Below, piece after piece: positions 33,570-50,425 of a DNA stretch of 64,000 bases. The stretch is from an uncultured Pseudomonadota bacterium. Its GTDB lineage: Bacteria > Oederibacteriota > Muellerivitia > Muellerivitales > Muellerivitaceae. The notes beneath the pieces were generated by a model. That model was not told where the DNA came from. It did not search any database and was given only the letters and a program-made list of their open reading frames with translations. The stretch lies in assembly GCA_963770835.1 (NCBI GenBank), contig CAVYRH010000008.1, forward strand, positions 64,001-128,000, written 5' to 3'. Every line of letters starts with the position of its first letter. Position 1 is the stretch's first letter. The position numbers and the translations under genes were made by a program.

Positions 33570-33598
33570 AAAGAAAGGATCATCCCGGTGGATGACCC
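33570..33598 (-). terminator. Terminator/attenuator-like hairpin 17 nt after LRI ORF A
   Basis: Minus strand GGGTCATCC-ACCG-GGATGATCC-TTTCTTT. Confidence 0.6.
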
Positions 33599-33615
33599 GG
33601 ATTTCGGAAAAAATC

Positions 33616-33972
33616 TCAGATTCGCAGGGGAATGGGGACGGTCGATGGAAAAGCCGTTCTTCCAAAAGAGGCGGGAGCCGCTTGTGCCGTCACGCGGAAA
33701 GCGAAAACGGAAAATGGGGAATTGGGAGACAATCGGGCGCAAGGCTTGAAATTGTTGAATTTATTCCCGGCTTGAAGGGATTGGCAGTTGAGCTGGCTTA
33801 AAAACCTCTTGCCGAAAGCCTGGCGGTTGGAACGGCGGAGGGTGTCTTGGGCGCCGTAATTACCGTTGGCGCGGACCATCACCATGGCCAGTTCCCGGCA
33901 GGCCAGGGGAAGCAGGGCGGCGGCCACGAGGAAAGCCAATAGGTTTTTCCGGGAAGAGGTTAACTTCGGCAT
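33616..33972 (-). CDS. LRI-stop small membrane-targeted protein A (candidate leader/arrest peptide)
   Basis: 118 aa; hydrophobic N-terminus with PLACRE; ends PLRI-TGA; AGGGAGG RBS; close paralog of 35554..35910. Confidence 0.8.
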   Translation of the reverse strand: MPKLTSSRKNLLAFLVAAALLPLACRELAMVMVRANGNYGAQDTLRRSNRQAFGKRFLSQLNCQSLQAGNKFNNFKPCARLSPNSPFSVFAFRVTAQAAPASFGRTAFPSTVPIPLRI

Positions 33973-34036
33973 ATTTTCAAACCGTCCCTCCCTAAAAGGT
34001 GGAAGCCCCGGGGTGCGCCCGGCCGTGAGGCGCCGG

Positions 34037-35290
34037 TCATCCGGCCGCCATCGCTTTCACCGGTTTCCCGTTCGCCTGGAAGGCCTCCACCGATCCGTCT
34101 CGAAGGGTCAAGAGGACCTTTAAGCCCTTCCCCGACCCGGTGAACCGGACTCCTTTCACGCCGGTATCCAGGAAGAGGGGCTTGCCCCCGGTTTCCAGCA
34201 AAAAGGCGTCCCTTGTATCGCCGACCAGCTTCACCGTGCGGCTGTTGTCGTCGCTCTGGAAGAGAATCTCACCGGCGGCTTCTTTGGGGGCGGTATAGCT
34301 GGGGGTTTCGCCGGAACGGTTATAGGGCCCCGGCCCGCCCTGGGCCTGCGGTTCCTCGCCGTTATCCAGGGGCGGGTTGTTGTAACCGCCGTCACTGTTC
34401 GAAGGCACATATTGGCCGTTTTCATTGATATAAACCGTGTTGGTCGCGGGGTTGGGCCAGTTCCAGCACCCATTGTCCCAATAGTCCCAATTGCCGTACC
34501 AGGGGTCGTTCCACCAAAACTGGCCGCCATAATACTGGGTCCAAAAGCAGCCGCCGCCGCCGTACCAGCCGTACCAGTTGCAGCCGAACCCGTCGCAATA
34601 ATTGCAATAGTTCCACCCGTTGTAGCTATGCCAGAAGTATTGGTTGCGGTTGTTTTCGGCGGTACGGTTGAACCCGTTGAGCTGGGACTTGAAGTTCCGG
34701 TCCCCGGTAATGGAGTTCATTTGGTTGCGCACGAAGCCGGAGTTCATCTGGCGGGGCGAGAAGGCCGAGCCCGAAAGGCGCTGGCCGTAGGGGCCCCGGG
34801 AGGGCATCCGCGCCGAGGAACGCTGCATATTCCCCGGGAAGGACCGGCCGTTGGAGCGCCCGGTGAGGGAATTCCGGTTGAAGAACTGGGAACCCATGGA
34901 ACGGTTCCCGTTGAAGTTATTGCCGCGATAGTTCCGGTTGAAGCCGTTGGTGTTTCCATAAGCCCGGTTGAAAGACTGGTTCCGTCCTCCCCAAAAGCCC
35001 CGGTTGCCCCGGAAAGAAGACCCGTAATAGGAACGGGAACTTCCCCGGTAAAAGTTCCCAAAACCCCGGTTGCCGCCGCTGAAGCCCCCTCGAAAACCGC
35101 CTCCCCAGCCGCCATGGCCGCTCCAGGTGGAGTTGCCGTCGCTGAAACCCCCTCCGCCGCCACGGCTGCCGCCGCTGAAGCCCCCTCCGCCGCCCCCACG
35201 GCCGCCGCCCCCGCCCCCTCCGCCATGGGATGGCAAGGCCGCCGCCGGAAGCAACAAGGTCAGGGAAAAGATGAAGATTAGTTTTTTCAT
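34037..35290 (-). CDS. Secreted Gly/Arg/Asn-rich protein with Trp/Tyr/Cys-rich domain (paralog 1)
   Basis: Signal peptide, poly-G/RGG tract, WHSYNGWNYCNY...FWTQYY.G.FWW.DPWYGNWDYW, C-terminal DAFL...KPLFLDT domain. Confidence 0.85.
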   Translation of the reverse strand: MKKLIFIFSLTLLLPAAALPSHGGGGGGGGRGGGGGGFSGGSRGGGGGFSDGNSTWSGHGGWGGGFRGGFSGGNRGFGNFYRGSSRSYYGSSFRGNRGFWGGRNQSFNRAYGNTNGFNRNYRGNNFNGNRSMGSQFFNRNSLTGRSNGRSFPGNMQRSSARMPSRGPYGQRLSGSAFSPRQMNSGFVRNQMNSITGDRNFKSQLNGFNRTAENNRNQYFWHSYNGWNYCNYCDGFGCNWYGWYGGGGCFWTQYYGGQFWWNDPWYGNWDYWDNGCWNWPNPATNTVYINENGQYVPSNSDGGYNNPPLDNGEEPQAQGGPGPYNRSGETPSYTAPKEAAGEILFQSDDNSRTVKLVGDTRDAFLLETGGKPLFLDTGVKGVRFTGSGKGLKVLLTLRDGSVEAFQANGKPVKAMAAG

Positions 35291-35349
35291 GTCGCACCGC
35301 CTAAAGGATTCGGGCCCTTCGTACCGTTCGGCCCCAATCCCACCTCTTA

Positions 35350-35383
35350 CTGTTTGGACGTTCCAGCCTGTAAAAATAATTCC
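35350..35383 (-). promoter_or_regulatory. ECF-sigma-like promoter
   Basis: GGAATT-N17-CGTCCAAACAG upstream of Gly-rich paralog 1. Confidence 0.6.
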
Positions 35384-35468
35384 GCCTTAAACCCGCCCTT
35401 CTGGATTCGGAAAATTTTATTTTTGGATCTCACGGATTTTTTCGGTTTGTTTAAAAATCACTTCATCG

Positions 35469-35527
35469 AAAAGGGGAGACGCGGAATGATCCCTTGAAAA
35501 AAACACGGACAAGGAATCATCCGCGTC
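35469..35527 (-). terminator. Long hairpin after LRI ORF B
   Basis: GACGCGGATGATTCCTTG...CAAGGGATCATTCCGCGTC then TCCCCTTTT. Confidence 0.55.
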
Positions 35528-35553
35528 GGGCAATCAGTATTTCGGGGGAATTC

Positions 35554-35910
35554 TCAGATTCGTAACGGGGTAAGAACAGCGGCTGGAAAAGCCCCTTCCC
35601 CGAAAGCGGCGGGAGCCGCCTTTGCCGTGACCAACTCGGCAGAAAGGGACAAGGGGGTACGGGGGGAGAACCCGGTGCAAGGCTTGAAATTCGTGAATTT
35701 GTTCCCGGCTTGGAGGGATTGATTGTTGAGCTGGCTCAAAAACCTTTTGCCGAAGCACTGGCGGTTGGACTGGCGCAAATTATCTTGGGTGCTGTAACCG
35801 GCGTTGGAGCGGATAAGCACCATGACCAGCTCCCGGCAGGCCAGGGGGGGCAGCACGGAAAGGACTATTAAAACCAGCAGGTTTTTTTGAAAACCCGTTA
35901 ACTTCGTCAT
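35554..35910 (-). CDS. LRI-stop small membrane-targeted protein B
   Basis: 118 aa; PLACREL, FGKRFLSQLN.QSLQAGNKF.NFKPC shared with A; ends PLRI-TGA. Confidence 0.8.
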   Translation of the reverse strand: MTKLTGFQKNLLVLIVLSVLPPLACRELVMVLIRSNAGYSTQDNLRQSNRQCFGKRFLSQLNNQSLQAGNKFTNFKPCTGFSPRTPLSLSAELVTAKAAPAAFGEGAFPAAVLTPLRI

Positions 35911-36140
35911 GATTTAACCCTACTCTTCCGCCCGGTAAGTTTCAAGGCCACTCCCGCGCGGCGGGCCACTCGAGACCACAAGTCGAGTGGGGTGGTTGCC
36001 CGCGCAAATTTATTAAGAAATCTGTAGAAAAGGCCGAAGAAAGGCCTGATTGGCATGAACTGCCGGTTGTGAAAGCTTCTTTACAATGGGCCATAATCTA
36101 AAGGCCGGGCCTCTTTATTCCGAAAGGAATCGGGGCGGAT

Positions 36141-36821
36141 TTAGTGCGGCGCGCAATAAAGCACCTGGGTCGCGAGGCAGGTGCCGCAGGTGTCATAGGC
36201 GCAGCCCAGGTAGGCGGCCCAAGAAAAGGCCCCCTCCATCAGGCTTGCCTTGGATTCGCAGTCGGTGAGCACGGTGGAGCAGGGCCCCTCGCAGGCGGAT
36301 TGCAGGGAACTTTTCATGCAGGACCAAAAGCCGTGGACGGCCTGCGTCTGGTAACCCGCCGGGGTCTTGACTGCGGTAAATTCCTTGACCATCAAGGGAT
36401 CCCGGTCCTGGGCGACCTCGAGCGCCCGGTAGGTGTTGACCCCGTCCGAGAGGTATTCCAGCGCGGCCGCGTCCGGGGACCCCACTTGGTCCAGGTCGTA
36501 AACGCGCCACGTCATGGTGACGGCCTTCCCGTCGCGGGTGACCGTCCCCCCCACGCCCCAGTCCCCGTTGGACCAGCGGCTGGTGAGGGTGTAACCCATG
36601 GACGCCGCACCCGCGACCAGGGCTTTCCAGGCGTCATCCAACGCCATCATGGTCGTATAATCGCTTTTCAACTCATCCAGCCCAAGGGTTTGCAACGGCC
36701 CATTCCCGCCCGATTGCGCGCAAGCTTGGGACGCAACCCACAGGGCGAACACCGCTCCCCATGCCCAAAAGGATGCCCCCTTCGCGGGGCCGCGACAGCT
36801 TCTGCGTTTAATGAAATCCAT
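36141..36821 (-). CDS. Secreted protein with an 8-Cys C-terminal domain
   Basis: AAGGAGG RBS; signal-like segment; C-terminal FWSC...C...C...C...C...C..C...C. Confidence 0.8.
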   Translation of the reverse strand: MDFIKRRSCRGPAKGASFWAWGAVFALWVASQACAQSGGNGPLQTLGLDELKSDYTTMMALDDAWKALVAGAASMGYTLTSRWSNGDWGVGGTVTRDGKAVTMTWRVYDLDQVGSPDAAALEYLSDGVNTYRALEVAQDRDPLMVKEFTAVKTPAGYQTQAVHGFWSCMKSSLQSACEGPCSTVLTDCESKASLMEGAFSWAAYLGCAYDTCGTCLATQVLYCAPH

Positions 36822-37152
36822 GGCGAACCTCCTTGGCTCAAAGTCTACTTTTATTGGACACCCGCGAATTCCGGGAATTCAAGGCGGTGCATGCGGAAAG
36901 AGGGCCGCCTTCGGAACGTTCTTCCCATGTTTATTGAATCGGCTTATGAGAATTAGGCTGACGCCTTTTCGACACGGGTCGAAGCGCGGGCGGGAAGCCA
37001 AGCGAATGGGTATGAGTGGCCCGGCCATGAAACTGGCGGCCCCACACCCCTTGTGGGGCTGTTTCATACCATAACCCAGGGTTATCTTCCGGACGGGGGC
37101 CGGGTTTCAACTGTCTTAAAAAGGCAAATCTCCTTATGTTTAACCCAATTGC

Positions 37153-37186
37153 GTAACCTTTGCGGCCCATCGGCCGTCTAAAATAG
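37153..37186 (+). promoter_or_regulatory. ECF-sigma-like promoter
   Basis: GTAACC-N16-CGTCTAAAATAG, followed by AAGGA RBS and ATG 37205. Confidence 0.65.
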
Positions 37187-37204
37187 GCAAAAGGAACGGT
37201 ATTA

Positions 37205-37561
37205 ATGGTACTGCAACCCCAAAACCGAGCCCAAACCCAACCCTCTTTTTTTAAAGCCGGGGCCGCTTTCCTCGTCTTCATCATCACCTTCTTATCCTTT
37301 GTTCCGGGCGGGTCCATCTCGCTTAAAGTTTCCACTATTTCCCATTCAAGCATCCCATCCACCGGCCACTGGCGGGCCAGCCGGCGCATTTATCCCAACC
37401 AGCAGGCCTCCAGCAAATCCGCAGTGGAAGTTCCCTTCAACTTCTATCCGCCCCAAACCTCCCCGGAAAGGATTTTCCGGGTGGCGCAAGACCGCAATGC
37501 CGCCGTTCCCCCTTTGAACCGCCGTTCCCCCGCCGTGCTTTTCTCCGTCTTACGCATTTAA
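37205..37561 (+). CDS. LRI-stop small membrane-targeted protein D
   Basis: 118 aa; TM AAFLVFIITFLSFV; ends VLRI-TAA; followed by a C/T-rich spacer. Confidence 0.7.
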   Translation: MVLQPQNRAQTQPSFFKAGAAFLVFIITFLSFVPGGSISLKVSTISHSSIPSTGHWRASRRIYPNQQASSKSAVEVPFNFYPPQTSPERIFRVAQDRNAAVPPLNRRSPAVLFSVLRI

Positions 37562-37661
37562 TCTAACCCGCCGTTCCCCCGGGCATTTAAAAACCGCCCA
37601 CCCCTTGTTTCCGATTTTCCGTTTTTAAACATTTTAATTTTTACAACTGAAGGAGAAACCC

Positions 37662-37835
37662 ATGCGATGGAAAGAAATACTGATCGGCGCCGGCATTTAC
37701 CTGTTGGTCATCCTGTCGGGTTACGAAGTCCCTTTTTTCATCCATCTTGTTAAAGCCCATTGCCAAACTCTTATCGCGTTCGGAAAAGAAGAACGAGCGG
37801 TTTGGCGTTTCGCGGTTCACAGCTTCGGGCTTTAA
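37662..37835 (+). CDS. 57-aa membrane peptide (below the ORF-track cut-off)
   Basis: AAGGAGA RBS; MRWKEILIGAGIYLLVILSGYEVPFFIHLVKAHCQ...HSFGL-TAA. Confidence 0.65.
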   Translation: MRWKEILIGAGIYLLVILSGYEVPFFIHLVKAHCQTLIAFGKEERAVWRFAVHSFGL

Positions 37836-37905
37836 CCTCGGGCTAAAAAAACCAACCTACAACGCGGCCGGCCCCTTAGGAGCCGCCGCCAGAAAGGAAA
37901 AAAAC

Positions 37906-38559
37906 ATGAATTTTTATATCTCAATCTCCCAGCTGATCCAAGCCGCCGAGGGCCTGGAAAAAAACCTGAGTCTCCTGGCCGAAAGGGCTTTCCGGGTCTG
38001 TCCCCGGGATGCCCGCGCAAACCGGGATCTTCTGGGGCAATGCGCGGAGCAAGTGGGGGCAGCCAGGGAAACCTTGGGAAAGAAGGTCCTCCTCAGCAAG
38101 ACGGCGCTGCGCCACGCGGCCATGCTTTCCCAAATTTTCGGCCTTTGCTTCCGCCGGATGGTTCTCCTGGGGTCCACCGTGGCGGGCATCGAAAAGGAGG
38201 ATGGGGAATACGCCCAAACCGTCCTGTATTTATTCTCAGGAGCCCACCGCCACTTTGTCCTGTTCCAGGAAACCCTGGCCAAGCTGACTTGCGTTCCCCT
38301 GGCATTGGAATTTCAGCCTCCCGCGGATCAAACGGAAAGCGCCATGGGTGTTTTCCAGCGGGAGGAATCCTACCGCCGGGAGATGCTGGGCCTTTTGGAA
38401 AAAGCCCTCGAGCTTTTCAACGAGGAGCGGGAATTGTATGACTCGTTCCAATCGATCAGGCAGGATCTTTTGGAAGCGAAGCGAAAAACGAGGCGGCTCT
38501 TAATCGTCCAGGCGGCTCCCAAAGCCGTCCCGCCTTCGCCGGTATTGGCGCGGAGCTGA
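37906..38559 (+). CDS. Helical hypothetical protein, possibly degenerate ferritin-like
   Basis: AAAGGA RBS before ATG 37906; all-alpha pattern with HRHF...ETL and EESY; fold is a guess. Confidence 0.65.
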   Translation: MNFYISISQLIQAAEGLEKNLSLLAERAFRVCPRDARANRDLLGQCAEQVGAARETLGKKVLLSKTALRHAAMLSQIFGLCFRRMVLLGSTVAGIEKEDGEYAQTVLYLFSGAHRHFVLFQETLAKLTCVPLALEFQPPADQTESAMGVFQREESYRREMLGLLEKALELFNEERELYDSFQSIRQDLLEAKRKTRRLLIVQAAPKAVPPSPVLARS

Positions 38560-38609
38560 CGAGCCGTCTGTCCCTGAAGTGGTCGTGAAGTGAAGAAATT
38601 TATGTATGA

Positions 38610-38660
38610 AAAAACGGCGCCCCGGGATGTGGAATCCATCCCAAGGCGCCGTTTCCTTTT
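38610..38660. terminator. Bidirectional terminator between convergent genes
   Basis: AAACGGCGCC..GGGATG...CATCCC..GGCGCCGTTT. Confidence 0.75.
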
Positions 38661-38672
38661 AACCCTCCGAAA

Positions 38673-38933
38673 TTAAGCAGGGGTCTTCACCGCCAGATCC
38701 ACCAGTAGTGCCATGATGGCTTCCCGGGCATCCCCTCCCTCGGCGGTGATTTCGAGATTGTTACCCTTGGCGGCAAGCAAACCGATGATTTCGACGAAAC
38801 TTTTGGCGTCGACAACCACCTTTCCTTTTTGAATCTGTATTCGGGATTTAAACCGGGATGCGGTCTTTTGAAACTCCGACAACGTCCTTATTTGAAACTT
38901 AGATGGGTGTGGAATAGTGACTTTTTTAACCAT
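38673..38933 (-). CDS. Crh-like HPr paralog (Gln at the His15 position, Ser46 kept)
   Basis: KKVTIPHPSKFQIR, VDAKSF, LEITAEGGDAREA; AAGGAG RBS. Confidence 0.85.
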   Translation of the reverse strand: MVKKVTIPHPSKFQIRTLSEFQKTASRFKSRIQIQKGKVVVDAKSFVEIIGLLAAKGNNLEITAEGGDAREAIMALLVDLAVKTPA

Positions 38934-39058
38934 TGGGAGGCTCCTTTATTGAGTCTTTTTATTTGGATTTTTCGCGTAACACGCATGGGAAACGGCATAA
39001 AAATACACTAGTGCGGGGTTTGTCCGCGGAACATCAGCCACTCAATTTTGGGGAAGCC

Positions 39059-39430
39059 TCAAATGCGCAAGGGAGGAGCGGAACAACTGGGATGAACTGG
39101 TACAAACCGTGGATTAAATAAGGCGCCGTTTTTTTCATCCCCTTCCGGATTGGTGGGTTTTAAGGAAACCCTTGAATCCGAATAAGGCCTAGGGGGATTG
39201 TGGAATTTTGAATCGAATTCTTTGGCTTGGGCGTCAAGTAAATGAATCAGGGTTTTTCCAAAACGCCGGCCTTGGCCGGTGTTGGAAAAAGAAGCTTGTG
39301 AAAATAAGCGGGGACAGTGAAGGCTCAAGCTGAGAAGCTGCCGGCAGGCAAAGGGCATCAGGGTCGCCGCCAGGAGACCCGTTAGGAGAGTACGCCGTAA
39401 AAACACCCATCGTCCCATCCAGACACCCAT
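39059..39430 (-). CDS. LRI-stop small membrane-targeted protein C
   Basis: 123 aa; PFACRQL, FGK, KF.N shared with A/B; ends PLRI-TGA. Confidence 0.75.
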   Translation of the reverse strand: MGVWMGRWVFLRRTLLTGLLAATLMPFACRQLLSLSLHCPRLFSQASFSNTGQGRRFGKTLIHLLDAQAKEFDSKFHNPPRPYSDSRVSLKPTNPEGDEKNGALFNPRFVPVHPSCSAPPLRI

Positions 39431-39476
39431 CCTGCTTTACCCTTTTGTGGGAGCATTCATCAAAATAGTTTTCGAC

Positions 39477-40763
39477 TCACGTTTTCACGCTGCCGGCCGG
39501 TGTACCGTCCGAATTGAAAGTCTCAAAAGTGCCGTCCTTGAAGATCAATAAAATCTTCGTCGGCCCGGTGCCGGTACTGGAAAATTTCACTTCCTGTACG
39601 TTGGTATCCAGGTAAACCGGCTTGCCGGAGGCTTTTGAGTTATTCAGGTCATAAAGAAAAGCGTCTCCTGTGGCCGAAACCGCCACCTTGACCTTTCCAT
39701 CCTGGCTCACAAAATCAATTGGTTCGTTGGAGGCGTTCGCGGCGGAACCGTTGGGCTCGATATTGTTCGTTAGCTTTTGTTCCTGGTTGTCCCCGTAAAC
39801 CGGGCCGCCGTAATCATCTTGGTTGTAGGCTGAGGAGCCGTTGCCGTTGCCGGCGGAACCGCCGGCGTTGCCGTCGCCCTGGGCCGGAGTATATTGGCCG
39901 TTGTTGTAGACGTAAACGTTCGTGGTCTCGGGGTTCTGCCACCACCAGTTATTACCGTACCAATAGTCCCAGTTTCCATACCAGGGGTCGTACCACCACC
40001 AATTGCCGGCGTAATACTGGCTCCAGAAGAACCCCCCGCCGCAGTTCCAGCCCCACCAGCAATTTCCGAAGCGGTCGTAGTAGTTGCAATAGTTATAGCC
40101 GTTCCAAGAGTGCCATAAATATTGGTTGGTCCTTCCGGCGATCGGGGTGGTGGCGGCGACTTTGGCCATGAAATTCCGGTTACCCGCGATGGCGGCCATT
40201 TGGGTCCGAATCGCGGGGCTGTTCATTCCGCGAGGGGAAACCACAGAAGAAGAAAAAGACCGGCCTGCGGGCCCTTGGCTGGGCAGCCCCGGCGCGGAAT
40301 GACTGAGATTGTGAGAAAGCATCGCCGAGGAAGACAGCGGCCGGGGAATGCTGGTCACTCCCATGCGTTGCAGGTTCTGCGGAACGACATTGGAATGATA
40401 AGTGTTGGAGCCGTTGTAACGGGAATTCGTGGAGAAATTGAAATGGTGGAAGGTCCCGCTTCCCTGGTAGGACCCATTGCCGCGGTAGCCGCGGTTGTAA
40501 TTGTAGGTGCGGCCTGAGGACCGGTAATAGGCCCTTCCATTGGAATAGTGTTGACCGTGATACACGGTGTCGTTGGAAGTGTTGGAACCGGTGGACCCTC
40601 CACCGCCGCCAGCATTACCGCCACCGCCACCCCCTCCGCTGTAACCACCACCGCCGCCGGCGTTGCCGCCACCGCCGCCCCCGGACAATCCCTCGTTATG
40701 GGCCCAAACCAACCCGTAAGGAATCAATGCCAGGATCACTACCACCATTATTGTCTTTTTCAT
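39477..40763 (-). CDS. Secreted Gly/Asn-rich protein with Trp/Tyr/Cys-rich domain (paralog 2)
   Basis: Same architecture as 34037..35290; WHSWNGYNYCNY...DPWYGNWDYW; DAFL...KPVYLDT; GGAGG RBS. Confidence 0.85.
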   Translation of the reverse strand: MKKTIMVVVILALIPYGLVWAHNEGLSGGGGGGNAGGGGGYSGGGGGGGNAGGGGGSTGSNTSNDTVYHGQHYSNGRAYYRSSGRTYNYNRGYRGNGSYQGSGTFHHFNFSTNSRYNGSNTYHSNVVPQNLQRMGVTSIPRPLSSSAMLSHNLSHSAPGLPSQGPAGRSFSSSVVSPRGMNSPAIRTQMAAIAGNRNFMAKVAATTPIAGRTNQYLWHSWNGYNYCNYYDRFGNCWWGWNCGGGFFWSQYYAGNWWWYDPWYGNWDYWYGNNWWWQNPETTNVYVYNNGQYTPAQGDGNAGGSAGNGNGSSAYNQDDYGGPVYGDNQEQKLTNNIEPNGSAANASNEPIDFVSQDGKVKVAVSATGDAFLYDLNNSKASGKPVYLDTNVQEVKFSSTGTGPTKILLIFKDGTFETFNSDGTPAGSVKT

Positions 40764-40816
40764 GAAACCACCTCCGGTAAAGCCTTCCCCACGCCGTCTA
40801 CTTTGAAATCCTTACA

Positions 40817-40850
40817 CTATTTTGACGTTTCAAAGGGGTAAAAAGGTCCC
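40817..40850 (-). promoter_or_regulatory. ECF-sigma-like promoter
   Basis: GGGACC-N17-CGTCAAAATAG; same spacing and TTTTTAC spacer as the 35350-35383 site. Confidence 0.6.
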
Positions 40851-40940
40851 TGCCTAAGGGGCATAACAACAATCCGTCCCTCGAAACGCCGGTTTTAACC
40901 ATCCAACCAACACTCAATCCTCTGAAAATCGAATATATAC

Positions 40941-41615: not shown

Positions 41616-41716
41616 CCCAACCTCCCGGCCCCCGGACGAACCCGGCGTCGTTCCCCAAACCCTCCATTATTCATATTCAAAATCCGAACAATCTGTTTCA
41701 ACCCTGTCCGCTTTAG

Positions 41717-43198
41717 TTATTTTACCGCGTCGGACGTTCCGCCCCCTAAAAGGTACTTCTCCCCCATCGCCGATAAAAGTTGCGTTTTAGCCTCGGCCGT
41801 TTGAAGGCCGACGTTCACCATGTCTTTCAAGGCCTGCTGAAGGTCCGAAAGGGGCCCCAGGAAGGCCAGGTATCTCTGGCGGGCCAGGGCCGCGGCCTTT
41901 TGAGCCTGATCCTGTTCCACCGACAAGGTTGCCAGGTCCTCGCGGGCCTCTTGCATTTGTTCCAGGTAGCGGACGTTTAAGTCGTCCAAAACCAGCTGGT
42001 CGGCGGAAACCTCTGCTTGCCGGGCCTGAGTCTCCGCCCGCGCCGCCTTTTCCTGGGCGTCGATGCGGAAGCCCTCGAAAATCGGCAGGCTGACACCCAC
42101 GAACAAGGAATAGTCCTGGGAGCCCACCAGGCGGGTATCGCTTAAATAGCCGGCGCCCCCGGCCACCTCCAAAACCGGGAGGTTCTCGGCGGAATACTGG
42201 GCAGTCGTCTCGTTGGCGGATTTGGTTTCCAATTCCGCTCCCGCCACCAGGGGATTCATCCCCGGCACCGTCAGGTTCGCCAGGTCCGCTTCCGACAACT
42301 CGGAGGGCGCGGGGCAGGAAATGCCCTTGGCGTCCAGCCCCGTCAAGAGAGCCAGGCGTTCCAGGGTTGCTTGGTACTGGCGGTTGAAGTCCGAGGCCTT
42401 CATGGCCGCGTCGGCCAACTGGTCGTCGATCAAATAGCCCTGCACTTGCGAGTACTGGCCGTTACGGACGAACCGAGCCACGGTGGTCTTGATGCCGGTG
42501 AGTTCATCGGCCAGGGCCTGCCACGCGTCCCGCTCCCCCCTTTGCCGCACCGCCTCCAGGTAAAGGCCCAGGGCATGTTCGTCCACCAGCTCAGCCTGGA
42601 ATTTCGTCCTTTGCCGGCTGGCGTCGTATTCGTAGTGGGCGGCGGACGACTGGTGCCAGATGGATAAGTCCAGGAGATCCCATTTGGCGTAGGCCCCGGC
42701 GGCGGCGCCCTGGCGGTAAGGAGAGGCCACCAGGCCTGGAAAACTGTTCAATCCGGAAGTGCCGAAACCCGAGGCCGATCCCGGGAAGCCGGTGGAATCC
42801 ACCGCATCAGCCCCCAGGTCCGGGTAAAAGCCCGAATCCGCGACCCGGGAGAATTCCCGGGCTTCGTTTTCGCGCGACGCGACGGCCTGGAGGGCGGGGC
42901 TTGTTTTTTCCGCCAGGCGCATGGCTTCGCCCAGGGTCAGGACTTTCCCAGGATTCTCCTGTGCGGTGGCAATCAACGGCAAAAGCAAAAAGAAGATTCC
43001 ACCGCCAAGACGCCAAGACGCCAAGAAAAATCTTTTCTTAAAAAACACACAATATCTAAAAACATGGTTTCGAAAAAATTCAACAAGGGATTCTGTTTTA
43101 GTTTTGAATTTTCGCCTCTCTTGGCGTCTTGGCGTCTCGTGCTTTTTACTGCCCTTGGCCGAAGGCCAATGGGTGGCGGTAGCTGTTGTCTTTCTCAC
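41717..43198 (-). CDS. TolC-family outer-membrane factor
   Basis: LTLGEAMRLA, FYPDL, NLPVL, GVSLPIFEG, ARQRY..G; overlaps the RND stop (GTGA); start uncertain. Confidence 0.85.
   Translation of the reverse strand: MRKTTATATHWPSAKGSKKHETPRRQERRKFKTKTESLVEFFRNHVFRYCVFFKKRFFLASWRLGGGIFFLLLPLIATAQENPGKVLTLGEAMRLAEKTSPALQAVASRENEAREFSRVADSGFYPDLGADAVDSTGFPGSASGFGTSGLNSFPGLVASPYRQGAAAGAYAKWDLLDLSIWHQSSAAHYEYDASRQRTKFQAELVDEHALGLYLEAVRQRGERDAWQALADELTGIKTTVARFVRNGQYSQVQGYLIDDQLADAAMKASDFNRQYQATLERLALLTGLDAKGISCPAPSELSEADLANLTVPGMNPLVAGAELETKSANETTAQYSAENLPVLEVAGGAGYLSDTRLVGSQDYSLFVGVSLPIFEGFRIDAQEKAARAETQARQAEVSADQLVLDDLNVRYLEQMQEAREDLATLSVEQDQAQKAAALARQRYLAFLGPLSDLQQALKDMVNVGLQTAEAKTQLLSAMGEKYLLGGGTSDAVK
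43003..43141. repeat. Inverted octamer repeats (CGCCAAGA)n inside the 5' end of the TolC ORF
   Basis: CGCCAAGA x3 at 43003-43026 facing TCTTGGCG x2 at 43119-43134 across an AT-rich spacer. Confidence 0.75.
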
Positions 43199-46100
43199 TT
43201 CGAATCCTCCTTGTAGTAGGCGCTGTGGGGATCCTGGGGATCCAAGGACGCCGTGTGTGCGGCCTTATTCTGGTGCCAAAGGGCGTAAATGACCGGCATA
43301 ATCAGAAGCGTCGTGACCGTGGAGCCGCAAAGGCCCCCAATAACCCCCCGGGCCAGGGGCGCGCTTTGCTGGCCGCTGTCGGAGAGGCCCAGCGCCATGG
43401 GAATCATGCCCACCACCATGGCGATGGCCGTCATCAAAACCGGCCTCAGGCGGCTTTGGGCCCCGTACATGGAAGCCTCCCAGGAATGCCATCCCGCCAG
43501 CCGCGTCATATCCGCGAAAGTTACCAGGAGGATCGAGTTGGAAACCGACACTCCCACGGCCATGATGGTTCCCATGAAGGATTCGATATTCAGGGTCGAA
43601 CCCGTGAGGTAAAGAAGGGTCAAGGCCCCCGTGAGAACCGCCGGGACGTTGGAAAGAATGATGAGCGAGATGGGAAAGGACTCGAAGGTACCCGAAAGCA
43701 GCAGCAGCATGACCACCACCGCGAATAGCAGGCCGGCCGAAAGCCCTACAGTCATTTGTTGGAGGGTGGCCATCTGTCCCCGCACGTAGATCTGGACTTC
43801 CTTAGGCGCCGAGCGGCGAATAGGCTCCAGTACTTTATCCAAGGCCTCCGACGCGTGCCCCATGTCCAGCTTCCATAGATTACCGGTCACGCTGGCCATG
43901 CGGGCCATGTTGTAACGGTCGTATTCGGCCACTTCGGTGCCCGGTTTCACTTGGGCGAAGGTGTCCAAGGGCAAGGAGCCCTCGTTGACAGGGATAGGCA
44001 TTTTTTCCAGGTCCCCGACGGAATGAATGTCCCGTTCCGGCACTTCCACCTGCACTTGGTAATTCACGCCGTCCTTAGGGTCTTCCCAGTAATTCAACAG
44101 GGTGAAACGGCTGGACGAAGTCACGGGCACGAGGGCCCTGCCCACGTCGGTGACGTGCACGCCCCGGATACCCGCCTTTCGGCGGTTCACGTCCACGTCC
44201 AGGGTGGGGTATTCCCACGGCTGGCCGTATTGAAGGTCCCGGACGGAGGGGAGCGAGGCGGCCAGCGCCTGCTGGATTTGGGCGGCCACCTGCCGGTCGT
44301 GGTCCAGGTTTTGGCCGTTCACGTCCACCTCCACCTGCGTGGGCGAACCCTCGCTCATGACCTTGTCAATGAGCCCGCTGGCCTCGAAGGAAACCTCCAC
44401 GTCGGGCAGTTCCCGCTTGAAGACCGTCCTCAGTTTTTCCGCCAGTTCGGCGGTATTGACCTTGGACTCCTTTTTAAAAGCCACCTGGAGAACGGCCTCT
44501 TGGGGTCCGGAGGTCCAAAGGAAAATGGTGTTGATGGCGTATTGGGTGGGCTGGATCCCCACATAAGCCAATGTGGTACGCAAGCTATCGGCCCCTGCGG
44601 CCTGTTTGATGAGGTCAATAGCCTTGAGCAGGATTTGCTCGGTCTTGTCGATATGGGTTCCGGTGGGCGCGCGCAGGCGGATTTGAAGCTCATGGCTTTC
44701 CACTTTCGGGAAGATTTCCCGCCCGACACGGCTTCCCACGGTGAGGATCACGGCGGCCGCCAACAAGCCATAGCCTCCAATGAACAACCACCGCTTTTTG
44801 AAGATAAACTCCAGGAGCTTGCCGTGGACCCGTTTCATCTTACTGATTACCGTGTTTTTCCCAGGCGCATGGCCCTTTTCCTTTTCCAAAAGCCAAGTTG
44901 CCAGGATGGGCACCAGGGTCATGGAAAGGAAAAAGGCCCAGATGATGGAAAACCCGACCGCGAGCGTCAACGGCACAAAAAGGGCCTTGGTGATTCCCCC
45001 CATGAAAAAGGCGGGGATGAACACGGCCACGATGCAAAGCATGGTCACCAGGGCGGGGCTGAAAATCTCGCTGGCGCCGTTCAAGGCCGCCTCGGGCAGC
45101 CTTTCCCCCTTTTCCATGCGCACGTGGATGTTTTCAATCGTGACGGTCGACTCGTCCACCAGAATGCCGATGGCCAAGGCCAGGCCTCCCAGGGTCATGA
45201 TATTGATGGTCTGGCCGGCGGCCTTGAGGCTGGCAATAGCGCCCATGACAGCCAAGGGAATATTGATGATCACGATGAGGGCGCTGCGCCAGTCACCCAG
45301 GAACAAGAGGACCATCAGCCCCGTCAGCAAGGCCCCCATGGCCCCCTCAAAGGCCAGGGAGGAGATGGAGTCCTTGACGGCGCCCGATTGGTCGAATTCG
45401 TAGCTTATTTTGATGTCGTCCGGCAGGACATTCTGGAACATAGGAAGGTGGTCCTTGACGTCCTTCACCACCGCGAGCGTCGAAGCGTCGGCGCGCTTCA
45501 AAACCGGAAGGTAGATGGTCCTTTTGCCGTTCAAGAGGGCGTAGCCCACCTGGATGTCGGTGGCGTCCTCCACGGTCCCGACGTCCCCGATGAAAACCGT
45601 CGGGTAAGTCCCCAGGCGGATGGGAACCTGGAGCAGCTCGTTGATGTCCCGGACGATGGAATTCATGGGCACGGCGGGATACATATCGCCGATCCTGACG
45701 TTCCCCGCCGGCTCGATCTGGTTGGATTTGGCCAGGGCCTGCACCACGTCCTCCGGGGAAAGGTTGTAGGCCTGGAGCTTCTTGGGATCCACCCGAATGA
45801 CGATGGACCGGGGGCTGGAACCGAAGGAGTCCGAAACCAAAAGGCCAGGCAGTGTGGCCACCATCGGGCGGACATAGTTGAGGGCGTAATCCTCGACCTG
45901 GCCCAAGGGGCGGGTTTCGCTGGAGAAAACCAGGTCCCCCACGGGCAGGTTGCCGCTGTCAAAGCGCAGGAGAAGGGGCGGAAGCGTCCCGGTCGGCATG
46001 TTCTTGAGGGCGCGCATGGAGCGGGACACCGCCTCGCCCATGGCCGCGGACATGTCGGTGTCCGGGTAAAACTCCAGCTTGACCAGGGTCATGCTCCCGA

Positions 46101-46404
46101 TGCTCTTGGAGGTGATGTTCCGGATACCGTTGACGTAGGAAAACTGTTTCTCGAAGTTATAAGCGATGAAACTCTCCATTTGGGCCGGATCCAGCCCGCC
46201 ATAAGGTTCCACCACGTAGATCTGGGGCGTGCCCAAGTGGGGAAAGATATCGAACTGCATGTTGAGAAGGGACCAGGCGGCCCCCAGGGCCACGGCCGCG
46301 GCCAGGACCATGATGGTGATGGGGCGGCGCATGGCCAGCTTGACCATCCAGACACGCAGGACGCGTTGGATCATCAACTTTTGAAGGTTCTTAAGGGTCG
46401 TCAT
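43195..46404 (-). CDS. RND efflux permease (AcrB/AcrD/AcrF family), paralog 2
   Basis: NIPLA, NIMTLGGLALAIGILVDE, LFVPL, RLRPVLMT, QQSAPLARGVIGGL. Confidence 0.95.
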   Translation of the reverse strand: MTTLKNLQKLMIQRVLRVWMVKLAMRRPITIMVLAAAVALGAAWSLLNMQFDIFPHLGTPQIYVVEPYGGLDPAQMESFIAYNFEKQFSYVNGIRNITSKSIGSMTLVKLEFYPDTDMSAAMGEAVSRSMRALKNMPTGTLPPLLLRFDSGNLPVGDLVFSSETRPLGQVEDYALNYVRPMVATLPGLLVSDSFGSSPRSIVIRVDPKKLQAYNLSPEDVVQALAKSNQIEPAGNVRIGDMYPAVPMNSIVRDINELLQVPIRLGTYPTVFIGDVGTVEDATDIQVGYALLNGKRTIYLPVLKRADASTLAVVKDVKDHLPMFQNVLPDDIKISYEFDQSGAVKDSISSLAFEGAMGALLTGLMVLLFLGDWRSALIVIINIPLAVMGAIASLKAAGQTINIMTLGGLALAIGILVDESTVTIENIHVRMEKGERLPEAALNGASEIFSPALVTMLCIVAVFIPAFFMGGITKALFVPLTLAVGFSIIWAFFLSMTLVPILATWLLEKEKGHAPGKNTVISKMKRVHGKLLEFIFKKRWLFIGGYGLLAAAVILTVGSRVGREIFPKVESHELQIRLRAPTGTHIDKTEQILLKAIDLIKQAAGADSLRTTLAYVGIQPTQYAINTIFLWTSGPQEAVLQVAFKKESKVNTAELAEKLRTVFKRELPDVEVSFEASGLIDKVMSEGSPTQVEVDVNGQNLDHDRQVAAQIQQALAASLPSVRDLQYGQPWEYPTLDVDVNRRKAGIRGVHVTDVGRALVPVTSSSRFTLLNYWEDPKDGVNYQVQVEVPERDIHSVGDLEKMPIPVNEGSLPLDTFAQVKPGTEVAEYDRYNMARMASVTGNLWKLDMGHASEALDKVLEPIRRSAPKEVQIYVRGQMATLQQMTVGLSAGLLFAVVVMLLLLSGTFESFPISLIILSNVPAVLTGALTLLYLTGSTLNIESFMGTIMAVGVSVSNSILLVTFADMTRLAGWHSWEASMYGAQSRLRPVLMTAIAMVVGMIPMALGLSDSGQQSAPLARGVIGGLCGSTVTTLLIMPVIYALWHQNKAAHTASLDPQDPHSAYYKEDSK

Positions 46405-46471
46405 GGGTGCACTTCCTTTCCCCGCCGGGGAACGCCCGACCGGAGGTTGGATGGGAAAAACCCACCCTTTC

Positions 46472-49400
46472 TCACTTCAACCGGCCCTCGTAAAAGGCGC
46501 TTTGGGGATCGATCGGGTCCAACGACGCCGTGTGGGTAGGTTTCTCATGGTGAACGATGGCATAGATGACCGGCATGATGAGCAACGTGGTGATAGTCGA
46601 ACCCAGTAGCCCCCCGATGACCGCCCGGGCCAGGGGCGCGCTCTGCTGGCCGCTTTCGGAAAGCCCCAGGGCCATGGGGATCATGCCCACGATCATAGCG
46701 ATGGCCGTCATCAAAACCGGCCTCAAGCGGCTATGGGCCCCATGAACGGCAGCCTTCCAGGAATGGACGCCCGATCGCCGCGTCAGGTCCGCGAAGGTCA
46801 CCAGCAGGATCGAATTGGAAACCGATACTCCGACGGCCATGATGGTCCCCATGAAGGATTCGATATTCAAGGTCGAGCCGGTGAGGTAAAGAAGCGCGAG
46901 GGCCCCGGTGAGGACCGCCGGAACGTTGGAAACCACGATGGCGGCAATTGGGAAAGATTCGAAACTTCCCGCCAAAAGCAGGAGGATGACGATGATGGCG
47001 AAGAGCAACCCCGCCGAGAGGCCACCCACCATGGTATCCAGACTCTTAACCTGGCCCTGTACCCGAATTTGGGTTCCCCGCGGCAGGCCTTCCCGGATGG
47101 GTTTCAAGGCTTTTTCGATTTTTTGATCGGCGTGGCCCAAGTCGATGCCGAAAAGATTGCTTGTGACGGTGGCCATGCGCAGCATGTTGTACCGGTCGTA
47201 TTCCGCCACGGCGGTCACGGGTTGGACCTCCGCGAAATTGTCCAACGGCAGGGATGCGCCGTTGAAGGAGATCGGAACCTTTTTCAACTGGTCGACGGAG
47301 GTGACCAGGTTTTGGGGGACCTCAACCTGCACCTGGTAATTGATGCCGCTATGGGTGTCTTCCCAGAAATTCAAAAGCGAGAAGCGGCTGGAGGAAGTGA
47401 CGGGGATGAGGGACCGCCCGATGTCCGCCACCTGCACGCCGCGCAAGCCCGCCTTCCGGCGGTCCACTTGCACCTCGACGGCCGGATAATCGAAAGGTTG
47501 GCCGTACTGGATATCCCTTAAACCCGGAATTCCCTCCAGTGCCTGTTTCACCCGGGCCGCCACTTGCCGGTCGGCGTCCAAGTCGTGCCCGCTCACGGCG
47601 ATTTCAATGGGTTTGGGTGAGCCCTCGCTCATGACCTTGTCCACCATACCGCTGGCCTCAAAGGAAATTTCCACCCCCGGCAATTGCTGTTGGAAAAGGG
47701 GCCTTAACTTTTCCTGCAGTTGGGCGGTCGATATCTTGGAATCCCCCTTCAGCTGTACCTGCAGGCTCGCCTCTTGGGGGCCGGAAGTCCAAAGGAAGAT
47801 GGAATTGATTGCGTATTGGGTAGGCTGGGTGCCCACGTAGCCCAAGGTCGTTTCCACGTTGTCCGCCCCAGCGGCTTGCTTGATAAGATCAATCACTTTA
47901 AGCGTGATCCGCTCGGTTTCGTCGATGGCGGTGCCGGTCGGGGCCCGGACCCGCAAGGCCAATTGGTGGCTATCCACCTGGGGAAAGATTTCCCGTCCGA
48001 TGAGGGTTCCCAGGCCCAAAATTGTGAGGACGGCCACGATAATATAGAGCCCTTGAAAGGGCCATCGGTACCGGTAAATGAATTCAAGGATGCGGCCATG
48101 GGCCCGCCGCAGCTTTTCAATGAAAGGCTCCTTCTCATCCTTGCCTTGGGACTTTTTCGCGCGTTGCCCGTGGCCTTGGGGCAAAAGCCAGGTAGCCAGG
48201 ATCGGCACGATGGTCATGGAAAGAAAAAAGGCCCAGATGATGGAAAAGCCGACCGCCAGGGTCAGTGGCACGAAAAGGGCCTTGGCCATACCGCCCATGA
48301 AGAAGGCGGGAATGAAAACCGCCAGGATGCACAACATGATGAGGAAAGCCGGGCGGAAAATTTCGCTGGCGCCGTTGATGGCGGCGGTGGCCAGGTTTTC
48401 ACCTTTCTCCAGGCGCACGTGGATGTTTTCGATGGTGATGGCGCTTTCGTCCACCAAAATGCCGATGGCCAAAGCGAGTCCACCCAGGGTCATGATATTG
48501 ATGGTCTGGCCCGCGATCTTCAGGCTGAAAATGGCCCCCATGACAGCCAAGGGGATGTTGATGATGACAATGAGGGCGCTTCGCCAGTCGCCTAGGAACA
48601 ACAGGACCATGAGCCCGGTCAGGAGGGCCCCCATCGCCCCCTCAAAGGCCAGGGAGCTGATGGAGTTCTTGACCGCGCCCGATTGGTCGAATTCGTACTG
48701 GACTTCGATGTCCTTCGGCAAAACGCTTTTGAAGAGCGGGATGCTGTTCTTGACCTCGTTGACCACCGTCAAAGTGGAAGCGTCCGAGTGCTTGGTGACC
48801 GGCAGATAGATGGTTCGCTTGCCATTCAAGAGGGCGTAGCCCACCTGGATGTCGGTGGAATCGGAAACCGTGGCGATGTCTTTGAGGAAAACCGTGGGAT
48901 AGGTCCCCAGCCGGATGGGCACGGTCAAGAGTTCGTCGATCTTTTCCACAATGGAATTCATGGGCACCAGGGGGTACTGGGTGCCGATTTCCAAGTTGCC
49001 GGCGGGTACAATCAAGTTGGATTTTGCCAGGGCCACCGCCACATCCTCGGGCGAAAGGCTGAACTGGCTCAGTTTACGTGGATCCACGTTGATCACGATC
49101 GTGCGGGGGGATGAGCCGAAGGGGTTGGGCGCCAAGATCCCGGGCAAGGTGGCCAACAGGGGTCTGACGTAATTGAGGGCGTAGTCCTCAATATCCCCTA
49201 GGTTGCGGCCGGGACTGGAGAAGACCAAATCGCCCACCGGCAAACTTCCGCTATCAAAGCGCAAGATGAGCGGCGGCAAGGTGCCCGCCGGCATGTTCTT
49301 CAAGGCCCGGCTGGAATAAGCCACCACTTCCGCCATGGCCGCGGCCATGTTAGTTCCGGCGTGGAATCGCAGCTTAATGATCGAAGTCTGGGCGATGCTC

Positions 49401-49705
49401 TTGGATTCGATATGCTCAATACCGTTGACATAGAAGAATTGGCTTTCGAAGTTATAGGTGAGGAAACTTTCCACCTGGGCCGGACTTAAGCCACCGTAAG
49501 GCTCCACCACGAAAATTTGGGGCGTACCCAAATCCGGGAAGATATCGAACTGCATGTTAAAAAGTGCCGAAAGGGCTCCCAGCGCGATGGCGATACAAAG
49601 CACCACCATGGTGATCGGGCGGCGCATTGCCAATTCCACGAGCTTCACCCGAAAGACACCCGCAAGGCTTTTGTTCTTATCATTCAATCGTTTTTTTAAA
49701 GGCAT
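46472..49705 (-). CDS. RND efflux permease (AcrB/AcrD/AcrF family), paralog 1
   Basis: Same motifs; long stretches identical to paralog 2. Confidence 0.95.
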   Translation of the reverse strand: MPLKKRLNDKNKSLAGVFRVKLVELAMRRPITMVVLCIAIALGALSALFNMQFDIFPDLGTPQIFVVEPYGGLSPAQVESFLTYNFESQFFYVNGIEHIESKSIAQTSIIKLRFHAGTNMAAAMAEVVAYSSRALKNMPAGTLPPLILRFDSGSLPVGDLVFSSPGRNLGDIEDYALNYVRPLLATLPGILAPNPFGSSPRTIVINVDPRKLSQFSLSPEDVAVALAKSNLIVPAGNLEIGTQYPLVPMNSIVEKIDELLTVPIRLGTYPTVFLKDIATVSDSTDIQVGYALLNGKRTIYLPVTKHSDASTLTVVNEVKNSIPLFKSVLPKDIEVQYEFDQSGAVKNSISSLAFEGAMGALLTGLMVLLFLGDWRSALIVIINIPLAVMGAIFSLKIAGQTINIMTLGGLALAIGILVDESAITIENIHVRLEKGENLATAAINGASEIFRPAFLIMLCILAVFIPAFFMGGMAKALFVPLTLAVGFSIIWAFFLSMTIVPILATWLLPQGHGQRAKKSQGKDEKEPFIEKLRRAHGRILEFIYRYRWPFQGLYIIVAVLTILGLGTLIGREIFPQVDSHQLALRVRAPTGTAIDETERITLKVIDLIKQAAGADNVETTLGYVGTQPTQYAINSIFLWTSGPQEASLQVQLKGDSKISTAQLQEKLRPLFQQQLPGVEISFEASGMVDKVMSEGSPKPIEIAVSGHDLDADRQVAARVKQALEGIPGLRDIQYGQPFDYPAVEVQVDRRKAGLRGVQVADIGRSLIPVTSSSRFSLLNFWEDTHSGINYQVQVEVPQNLVTSVDQLKKVPISFNGASLPLDNFAEVQPVTAVAEYDRYNMLRMATVTSNLFGIDLGHADQKIEKALKPIREGLPRGTQIRVQGQVKSLDTMVGGLSAGLLFAIIVILLLLAGSFESFPIAAIVVSNVPAVLTGALALLYLTGSTLNIESFMGTIMAVGVSVSNSILLVTFADLTRRSGVHSWKAAVHGAHSRLRPVLMTAIAMIVGMIPMALGLSESGQQSAPLARAVIGGLLGSTITTLLIMPVIYAIVHHEKPTHTASLDPIDPQSAFYEGRLK

Positions 49706-49949
49706 TTTCTCCCTCAGTATTTGGCCTTTGAAAGGTCCTTTTTAAACAGCTCCATTATTTTTTACGTTTATTCCTAATATTTTGTCCGTTCACGGGTGGA
49801 AAAGCCAAGTCCCGGAAACGTAGAAATGGCGCCTCGCCTTGCGCCTTCCCATCCTAAAACGGCGGCAAACTTCAAGGTTTTGGCGTTATGGGTCCTGGAG
49901 TCCATGGACATTCCATGGACGTCAACAGATCCCTTTATCGTTGGAAATT

Positions 49950-50294
49950 TTAAATTCTTAAAATGCGGAAACTAGGAGGAAGAACGAGGCAAGAGACAGC
50001 TATGGGGCCTGGCCTCAGTGATCGAAGGCCAGGGACAAAAAGCGAATCCTTTGAAATACCTAACCAAACATTCAGGAGACAAAAACCGCGTTTCTCGGTT
50101 TTTTCAAAGGAACTGCGGTAATGGAGGCCTCCCGTGGTCGAATGAACATTGGCGAAAGGGGCTGCCTCCGTAATGGATGCTCCCGTTTTCGGAAACAAAG
50201 AATCCGCCCGATTGGTCAGGCTGGGCCGCAAAGACAAAAGGACAAGGCCGAGGGCCAAGGCCGTTTGGAAAATGATTTTCACCGTGTTTTTCAT
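49950..50294 (-). CDS. LRI-stop small membrane-targeted protein E, leader of the RND operon
   Basis: 114 aa; hydrophobic IIFQTALALGLVLLSL; ends ILRI-TAA; 244 nt upstream of the first RND gene. Confidence 0.7.
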   Translation of the reverse strand: MKNTVKIIFQTALALGLVLLSLRPSLTNRADSLFPKTGASITEAAPFANVHSTTGGLHYRSSFEKTEKRGFCLLNVWLGISKDSLFVPGLRSLRPGPIAVSCLVLPPSFRILRI

Positions 50295-50425
50295 CGGTAA
50301 TAATTATGGGGGGTCCTGAATTTTTTTTCAAGACGTCTGTCCGAAAGCTGATCTTCCATAAATAACTTCCGGGCTTCCAGAATGGGTTTCGAGGGATTCA
50401 AGGCAAAAACCAGGGGTACAGCGGC

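Follow-up and report, generated by a model that had tools for sequence, protein, structure and literature searches.

Why should five small open reading frames (ORFs) in one stretch of a bacterial contig all end with the same three amino acids? The stretch analysed here (the window) comprises 64,000 nt of contig CAVYRH010000008.1 (assembly GCA_963770835.1, positions 64,001 to 128,000), from an uncultured bacterium assigned to Oederibacteriota. Its five ORFs, A to E, encode peptides with an N-terminal hydrophobic segment and a terminal Leu-Arg-Ile directly followed by the stop codon (LRI-stop). The initial annotation, whose coordinates, last codons and distances to the next gene on the same strand all proved correct (Table 1), had taken them for a candidate new class of ribosome-arrest leader peptides coupling Sec/YidC engagement to downstream expression. 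We conclude that they are real, conserved ORFs and most likely form a family of regulatory leaders. Probably they act in cis: each would stall the ribosome at its own LRI-stop and thereby switch on the next gene.

The shared ending is far too frequent to be accidental. A scan of the whole genome, which the initial annotation had proposed, yielded 18 ORFs of at least 40 aa ending in LRI, and nine of these were 111-123 aa long with an N-terminal hydrophobic segment. Chance was judged on 286 candidates, namely the ORFs of 85-165 aa that had an N-terminal hydrophobic stretch and did not overlap long ORFs. Nine of the 286 ended in LRI, versus 0.054 expected from the internal frequency of LRI (Poisson, 1e-17). 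The only commoner ending among the candidates was AGG (14 ORFs, not inspected), and the next commonest occurred three times. The nine copies are divergent, and each stands at the head of a different operon.

Homologs of B, C and E were found by single-protein searches of 41 related genomes. Nine homologs were matched only short of the C-terminus, a sample unbiased by the motif; eight of them end in LRI and the ninth is a broken gene. Orthologs of A in relatives end in PLRI, and the one ortholog of D, in the close relative G001, ends in VLRI and lies upstream of the same membrane peptide gene. In an alignment of 25 peptides only L, R and I are invariant, with a nearly invariant Pro after the hydrophobic segment. 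The profile made from these peptides was matched 64 times across 99 genomes of the phylum (the 25 training sequences, 31 inspected and 8 partial, uninspected); 30 of the 31 end in LRI, the remaining one being the broken C ortholog. This ortholog, also in G001 (L091:3175-3507), is interrupted by stops. Of the 30 other genomes in the family, 22 proved to have LRI ORFs when the profile was combined with an anchor on TolC. Beyond the family the profile gave weak partial matches in long frames, uninspected, in 2 of 68 other genomes of the phylum, and a profile of the Cys-containing members described below matched none of three unrelated genomes. Profile searches of protein collections returned 42 of 44 and 31 of 33 new proteins with an LRI end, counts that are biased towards LRI because the motif is contained in the profiles. 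Scanning the genome collection for HPr paralogs gave four loci, one of them useful.

Codon usage was examined in 54 ORFs, which were collected from the loci by the LRI ending itself. Each of the six Leu codons and each of the six Arg codons is represented, in 18 distinct Leu-Arg spellings, of which TTAAGA is the commonest (19/54). Ile is encoded by ATC in 32 cases, by ATT in 22 and never by ATA. The stops are TGA (40) and TAA (14), with no TAG, versus 676 TGA, 812 TAA and 278 TAG in the genome. Since every synonymous Leu and Arg codon is used, the invariance of the ending must lie at the peptide level, as had been concluded from the five window ORFs. The 54 peptides are 108-123 aa long, and in every case a gene on the same strand follows at 80-268 nt. 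The co-orientation baseline (71.5%) and the gap control came from a crude set of genes of at least 150 aa, and were not used as a test.

Internal motifs distinguish six subfamilies (AB, C-like, D, E-like, Cys and RPVV) with little sequence in common. The genes downstream of them code for HPr paralogs, AcrB, TolC, small membrane or secreted proteins and IS1595-like ORFs. In all nine genome copies the best hydrophobic 15-aa window scores 1.9-2.7. Across the 54 ORFs the hydrophobic segment ends 81-98 residues from the C-terminus, mostly 92-94. The subfamily motifs keep their distance from the end as well: the last-Cys motif of the Cys subfamily is 51-53 residues from it in 49 of 49 sequences, a QLNxQ-like motif 53-55 residues in 36 of 38 and an RxSF motif 48-53 residues in 16 of 16 (the latter two searched within 40-70). 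The linker of about 50 residues between motif and end is hypervariable in sequence and nearly constant in length, and a low-confidence prediction makes it disordered. The fixed-length spacer postulated in the initial annotation was thus borne out, both from segment to end and from motif to end (50-55 residues). Closer to the stop, S, F and P are favoured at positions -11 to -9 (P or S in 47/54 ORFs at -10 and 43/54 at -9), and -5 and -4 are mainly hydrophobic or Pro. Among the last 15 residues there is a Pro-Pro (PP) pair in most of the Cys subfamily (16 of 18 members) and in 6 of the 36 other members; in the window, C and E have one near the end and A, B and D do not. No conserved Cys/His metal-binding motif was found in the window's five peptides; the Cys subfamily, which does have one, lies outside the window. 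Searches of the peptides against Pfam, NCBIfam and PDB sequences returned no family. A lipoprotein reading was ruled out, as the Cys after the hydrophobic segment is replaced by Gly, Phe or Val in many homologs. The AlphaFold model of B, of low confidence (pLDDT 62, pTM 0.23), has helices at 5-37 and 50-70 and disorder at 74-106.

Many of the ORFs appear to head leaderless transcripts, as indicated by the placement of a TAnnnT element. It occurs 11-14 nt upstream of the start in 23 of 53 LRI ORFs versus 59 of 952 control genes; in 21 ORFs it lies exactly at -12, and 25 have TTG at -35/-36. Over the region as a whole, promoter and terminator scans gave counts at the level of shuffled sequence (9 vs 8.2 and 41 vs 32.3, respectively).

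The mRNA just past the stop codon is predicted to reach the next gene. The first 20 nt are pyrimidine-rich, and in folding predictions they pair with the downstream ribosome-binding site (RBS) better than other offsets do, thus forming an anti-Shine-Dalgarno (anti-SD) arm. Predicted pairing per base with the RBS was 0.27-0.42 at +2 to +13, 0.01-0.03 at -7 to -2 (the LRI codons) and 0.02-0.04 in 110 control pairs; in the pairing tests one locus without downstream DNA was replaced by D. A ribosome with a stop codon in the A-site covers about 10 nt past the stop. When a footprint of -17 to +10 was masked, the cost of opening the RBS fell by 3.3 kcal/mol on average versus -0.07 in controls, and the gain exceeded 3 kcal/mol in 21 of 49 loci versus 1 of 100 controls (five loci with gaps above 200 nt were left out). 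In the window the gain was 4.8 kcal/mol for A, 4.1 for D, 1.5 for C, 0.4 for E and -0.6 for B. In a de-replicated set of 31 ORFs (<40% identity) the own arm scored -9.6, swapped arms -7.35 +/- 0.42 (0 of 20000 permutations), shuffled arms -6.2 and controls -6.6. The signal is present in 10 of 36 non-Cys members versus 4 of 90 controls.

The position occupied by these ORFs can be followed through other genomes. Upstream of close orthologs of the TolC gene of the cusCBA-like operon an LRI ORF was present at 17 of 17 loci (16 whole, the 17th cut by a contig end). At more distant TolC loci the upstream ORF ended in LRI (G013), in SPPVLKITQLQI (G025, from another family), in FRPPLQLI or in PFAQAPPA; of the 11 distant loci read, 7 lacked such an ORF. 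In other families the slot before TolC is filled by ORFs with QAPP, RPP or LQI ends. With CusA as anchor, 32 of 80 metagenome loci had enough upstream DNA, and 15 of these carried a small hydrophobic, mostly Cys-bearing ORF ending in LRI (3), FRI, LRC, FLI (2), LLI, WLI, FLL (2), LLL, FLT, FLN or PPRQL. Several have an anti-SD stretch past the stop, three stop at TAG, and none of the 14 scanned matched a family. ORFs ending in FCTLLN and FCTFLN precede TolC on Methylobacter and Methylomonas plasmids. Among eight plasmid regions with cus operons there were two leaders with a hydrophobic end, two truncated ones, one of the PP type and three regions with none in the annotation. In a sample from another phylum (around G099), an LRI-type ORF lay within 1.5 kb of TolC at 0 of 20 loci; one HPP-type ORF was seen.

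From these features the following mechanism can be proposed. The hydrophobic segment would target the nascent chain to the membrane, and the ribosome would arrest, or pause for long, at LRI-stop. With no ribosome at the stop, the 12 nt past it are predicted from folding to pair with the downstream RBS and the gene would be off. A ribosome held there would keep the anti-SD arm single-stranded, or shield a Rho site, and the next gene would be expressed. At this point the subfamily motif 50-55 residues back would be emerging just beyond the tunnel and the translocon, and the dwell time may be set by engagement of the anchor together with the state of that motif: metal binding in the Cys subfamily before cusCBA-like operons, and folding, a partner or plain pulling force in the other subfamilies. 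Over the last 14 codons C is frequent and G scarce, at silent sites too (G 0.12 vs 0.24), and Rho is encoded in the genome. Given these G-poor last codons and the presence of Rho, a CruR-like Rho-dependent readout is a likely alternative for B and E, for which no anti-SD helix is predicted.

Such a mechanism has published counterparts. Signal-bearing peptides arrest at the stop codon with NSP-stop, NAP-stop or DGMK-stop (PMC10987492, in part), and Clostridioides difficile CliM combines termination arrest with a stem masking the SD sequence (PMC13183943, in part), much as the LRI anti-SD arm is predicted to do in part of the family. They share with the LRI ORFs a short motif abutting the stop, an N-terminal targeting segment and a conserved spacer. 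They differ in preceding secA, secDF or yidC, with one or two per genome, whereas LRI leaders occur in up to nine copies per genome, have an unrelated motif and have no sec gene downstream. None of secA, secDF and yidC was found behind the nine copies; their downstream genes, and those among 39 proteins scanned, were HPr, AcrB, TolC, YtkA-like, IS1595-like or of no family.

The CutF protein of Rhodobacter capsulatus and the CruR protein of Bordetella pertussis are likewise about 120 aa long, start with an export signal, are encoded by the first gene of an operon and keep a fixed spacing between a conserved motif and a C-terminal one (CruR: PMC9426467). CutF has an SD-masking stem, CruR has a C>G bubble reminiscent of the G-poor last codons of LRI leaders, and outer-membrane efflux genes, which LRI leaders also precede, are the commonest neighbours of CutF-like genes. 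The rule for CutF-like proteins (<150 aa, a signal segment and a same-strand gene within 1000 nt; PMC9973294, in part) includes the LRI ORFs with their lengths and gaps, and the Cys-rich subfamily passes the CutF-like filter. The catalogue of 5,334 CutF-like proteins, for which PP was required (PMC9973294 and bioRxiv 10.1101/2025.02.05.636593, both in part), may hold Cys-rich relatives of the LRI leaders; RAPP/RGPP leaders precede many genes (PMC12992588, in part). In contrast to CutF and CruR, PF11162 (DUF2946) matched neither the window's five peptides nor 19 Cys members, the motifs RAPP, RGPP, HAPP, QAPP, RAGP, LAGP, RAPG and LPPP occur in 0 of 54 peptides within the last 25 residues, PP is absent from 30 of the 36 non-Cys members and LRI stands directly before the stop. 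A Cys/His metal motif is missing from five of the six subfamilies, whose downstream genes encode HPr paralogs, AcrB, membrane peptides or Gly-rich proteins. HYC_CC_PP (NF047658) and DUF6769 (PF20558) matched nothing in peptide or genome scans, and the NF047658 profile matched nowhere in the genome. The DUF6769 identity had arisen only as a language-model look-alike and was dropped, there being no profile match. Three further ORFs of the same genome are leader-like (C19:405841-406137, C26:877573-877863 and C7:72985-73356). Two of them, lying before a metal-uptake operon and the gene of a TonB-type receptor, end in RAPP plus four residues and match DUF2946 weakly (below the cut-off). The third is Cys-rich with PPP.

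Other arrest peptides are further removed. SecM, MifM, VemP and ApdA/ApdP also have an anchor, a spacer, a C-terminal motif and anti-SD coupling. Theirs is an elongation arrest at Pro-containing or acidic motifs, which exerts feedback on the protein-export machinery. TnaC and PepNL arrest at an RF2-read UGA stop, PepNL using a terminal Ile (PMC11890864, in part), but they are short, cytoplasmic and without a targeting segment, and are controlled by small molecules. In the main texts of the key papers on arrest leaders in which it was sought, including the LudP preprint, 'LRI' turned up only in an author's name. Literature searches, with few subscription papers within their reach, listed no paper on the motif, and it was not found in the available supplement of PMC10987492 by a whole-word search blind to LRI ending a longer sequence. 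Judged by their sequences, the LRI leaders would work like CutF, CruR and the stop-codon arrest peptides, yet they lack what those are recognised by: the sec gene, RAPP, DUF2946 and mostly PP. Of the arrest-leader idea the core was retained, a cis-acting LRI-stop leader, to which invariance, fixed spacers, position at the transcript head, the anti-SD arm and the presence of known arrest motifs in this slot elsewhere all point, the stall itself remaining presumptive. Its role as a Sec/YidC monitor is unsupported because no sec or yidC gene follows any of the nine copies, and the claim of a new class because the stop-codon arrest peptides, CliM and metal-sensing leaders ahead of efflux and uptake genes (CutF, CruR) had already been published.

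Several observations weigh against a stall at LRI-stop read out by an anti-SD arm. The signal of the arm is uneven (Cys 12/18, RPVV 4/5, C-like 3/13, E-like 2/8, AB 1/8, D 0/2); in the window it is clear for A, weak for C, provided by a coding arm in D and not predicted for B and E. The SD rule used for the LRI loci also picked the control starts, and at three LRI loci the start was adjusted manually. The counts include related genomes, which are not independent samples. Distant relatives terminate with UAG. LRI ends 4 of 2647 ordinary genes versus 0.58 expected, so that LRI-stop alone is tolerated, and in the de-replicated set TTA (15/31) and AGA (18/31) are over-used, which suggests some constraint at the nucleotide level. 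The PP of the Cys subfamily lies at -10/-9 (16/18), about 47 residues past the last Cys; with a spacing so close to the 45 of CruR, the stall could in this subfamily sit at PP.

A rival reading is a cis-acting leader with a CutF-like, EF-P-sensitive pause in the Pro/Ser-rich segment -11 to -9, and with LRI as a tag for degradation of the released peptide by a PDZ protease. We consider such a pause rather unlikely. It would account for the P or S residues at -10 and -9, for the PP of the Cys members and for the CruR-like spacing, and CutF itself escapes detection in vivo, presumably because it is degraded (PMC9973294, in part). However, most non-Cys members have no PP whereas LRI is invariant, and a ribosome standing 9-10 codons upstream of the stop would, with its usual footprint, leave the pairing peak at +2 to +13 uncovered. 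The degron alternative for the tail is weakened, as a protease leaves the absence of UAG and of ATA (each 0/54) unexplained. Translational coupling without true arrest, in which terminating ribosomes briefly open the helix and LRI with its rare codons merely slows termination or acts as a degron, also seems unlikely to us. An arm past the stop would suit any ribosome terminating there, and the over-use of TTA and AGA and the ordinary genes ending in LRI agree with it; but it explains neither the strict amino-acid invariance across synonymous codons, nor the fixed distances of motif and anchor from the end, nor why QAPP or RPP ends take the place of LRI in this slot elsewhere.

Two readings dispense with a leader altogether. 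The peptides could be exported signals acting in trans, their tail, which has the hydrophobic-x-hydrophobic form bound by PDZ proteases, activating one of the HtrA type as MucE does with AlgW. Small exported proteins with an invariant hydrophobic tail would be apt ligands, as would the mostly unfolded chain predicted for B, yet a ligand acting in trans could do without a fixed site before a co-oriented gene, an anti-SD arm or a spacer of constant length, and nine divergent copies heading different operons would be surprising; we hold this to be quite improbable. Scarcely credible is that a DNA or RNA site (near TTAAGAATYTGA) is conserved and LRI a by-product: the prevalence of TTAAGA speaks for it, but all 18 spellings are synonymous and always close, in frame, an ORF whose length is conserved. 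A cis-acting leader that stalls at LRI-stop remains the probable explanation.

Table 1. Positions of the LRI leaders, of their predicted RNA and promoter elements and of the genes behind them (window coordinates unless a contig label is given; gap, distance to the next gene on the same strand)
Feature	Position	Strand	Remarks
LRI leader A	33616..33972	(-)	118 aa, AB subfamily, ...PIPLRI; CTG CGA ATC TGA; gap 108 nt; precedes His15-less HPr paralog
LRI leader B	35554..35910	(-)	118 aa, ...LTPLRI; 64% identity to A; TTA CGA ATC TGA; gap 263 nt
LRI leader C	39059..39430	(-)	123 aa counted from first ATG, ...PPLRI; distant paralog of A/B; TTG CGC ATT TGA; gap 125 nt
LRI leader D	37205..37561	(+)	118 aa, ...SVLRI; TTA CGC ATT TAA; gap 100 nt
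LRI leader E	49950..50294	(-)	114 aa, ...RILRI; TTA AGA ATT TAA; gap 244 nt; precedes AcrB-AcrB-TolC operon
Further LRI copies outside the window	C4:756040; C8:132478; C8:173571; C26:396413		
Anti-SD arm of A	33603..33614	(-)	+2..+13; predicted pairing with RBS 33508-33522, 3.9 paired nt
Anti-SD arm of C	39041..39058	(-)	predicted pairing with 38939-38953 over RBS, 4.0 paired nt
Pyrimidine arm in last codons of D	37538..37546	(+)	predicted pairing with RBS 37649-37658; no post-stop pairing
Intergenic hairpin behind A	33568..33598	(-)	followed by U-rich tract and GCG; terminator-like or pause-like
Promoter-like site of B	35917..35945	(-)	TTGAAA-17-TAGGGT, ends 6 nt before ATG, leaderless arrangement
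Sigma-70-like site of E	50303..50331	(-)	TTGAAA-17-CATAAT, 8 nt before ATG; consensus match only
HPr-fold gene downstream of A	33190..33507	(-)	Pro at His15 position
Gly-rich secreted protein downstream of B	34037..35290	(-)	no Pfam/NCBIfam family; anti-SD coupling not predicted
HPr-fold gene downstream of C	38673..38933	(-)	Gln at His15 position
57-aa membrane peptide gene downstream of D	37662..37835	(+)	
RND operon downstream of E	41717..49705	(-)	two AcrB-family genes and an outer-membrane efflux gene

Some further features of the loci were recorded. A hairpin, a U-rich tract and YYGCGY follow at +34 to +82 behind the stop in 32 of 54 spacers versus 42 of 878 controls, possibly an RNA polymerase pause; the intergenic GCG motif could not be shown to have the geometry of a hairpin pause. 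The long genes ending in LRI (C2:227147-229339, C4:281423, C8:156843 and C11:24236) spell Ile as ATA in three of four cases, a codon unseen in the leaders; the 730-aa gene has ATC for Ile, and an anti-SD-like stretch follows this gene. The His15 phospho-site is missing in six of seven aligned HPr-fold paralogs right behind LRI leaders (including 33190-33507, 38673-38933 and L033:2729-2983), unlike in the HPr at 32662-32940, which retains it. The Gly-rich secreted paralogs 34037-35290 and 39477-40763 (-) share a Trp/Tyr/Cys-rich segment, match no family and recur next to LRI leaders in relatives. No membrane-fusion gene was seen among the genes of the RND operon (41717-49705, minus strand), in which tandem AcrB-family genes are followed by TolC. 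In two cases (L061:905-1354 and L076:3234-3653) the LRI leader is followed by an ORF of 140-150 aa that resembles the N-terminal zinc ribbon of IS1595 transposases, one of them with a weak Pfam match. Elsewhere in the window, 37909-38559 (+) encodes a conserved 216-aa protein starting with MNFY, found beside HPr and zf-HC2 genes in relatives and without a Pfam, NCBIfam or PDB match, and a Ppx/GppA-like gene identified by eye, 51498-53037 (+), seems split into two frames (51498-52025 and 51895-53037).

More tentatively, and with a little less than even confidence, we suggest that LRI-stop is how one lineage represents a class of termination-arrest leaders (F/L/W-R/L-x-stop) that is widespread, independent of proline and so far undescribed. 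Together with its anti-SD arm the motif would serve as a transferable output unit that is joined to different sensor segments. In many lineages these would be Cys-rich and lie upstream of cusCBA-like pumps; this family would in addition have Cys-free segments, tying the state of the membrane or translocon to His15-less HPr paralogs and AcrB pumps. Published screens required a position upstream of sec or yidC, RAPP-like motifs or PP near the end, and a proline-independent stop-codon motif before unrelated operons would have been missed by all three types. LRI offers a short testable motif with a predicted stall site and a predicted helix, and it points to an overlooked stall site in many Cys-rich, hydrophobic-ended leaders before heavy-metal pumps. 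If this is true, arrest leaders would be used as a general regulatory cassette, up to nine per genome.

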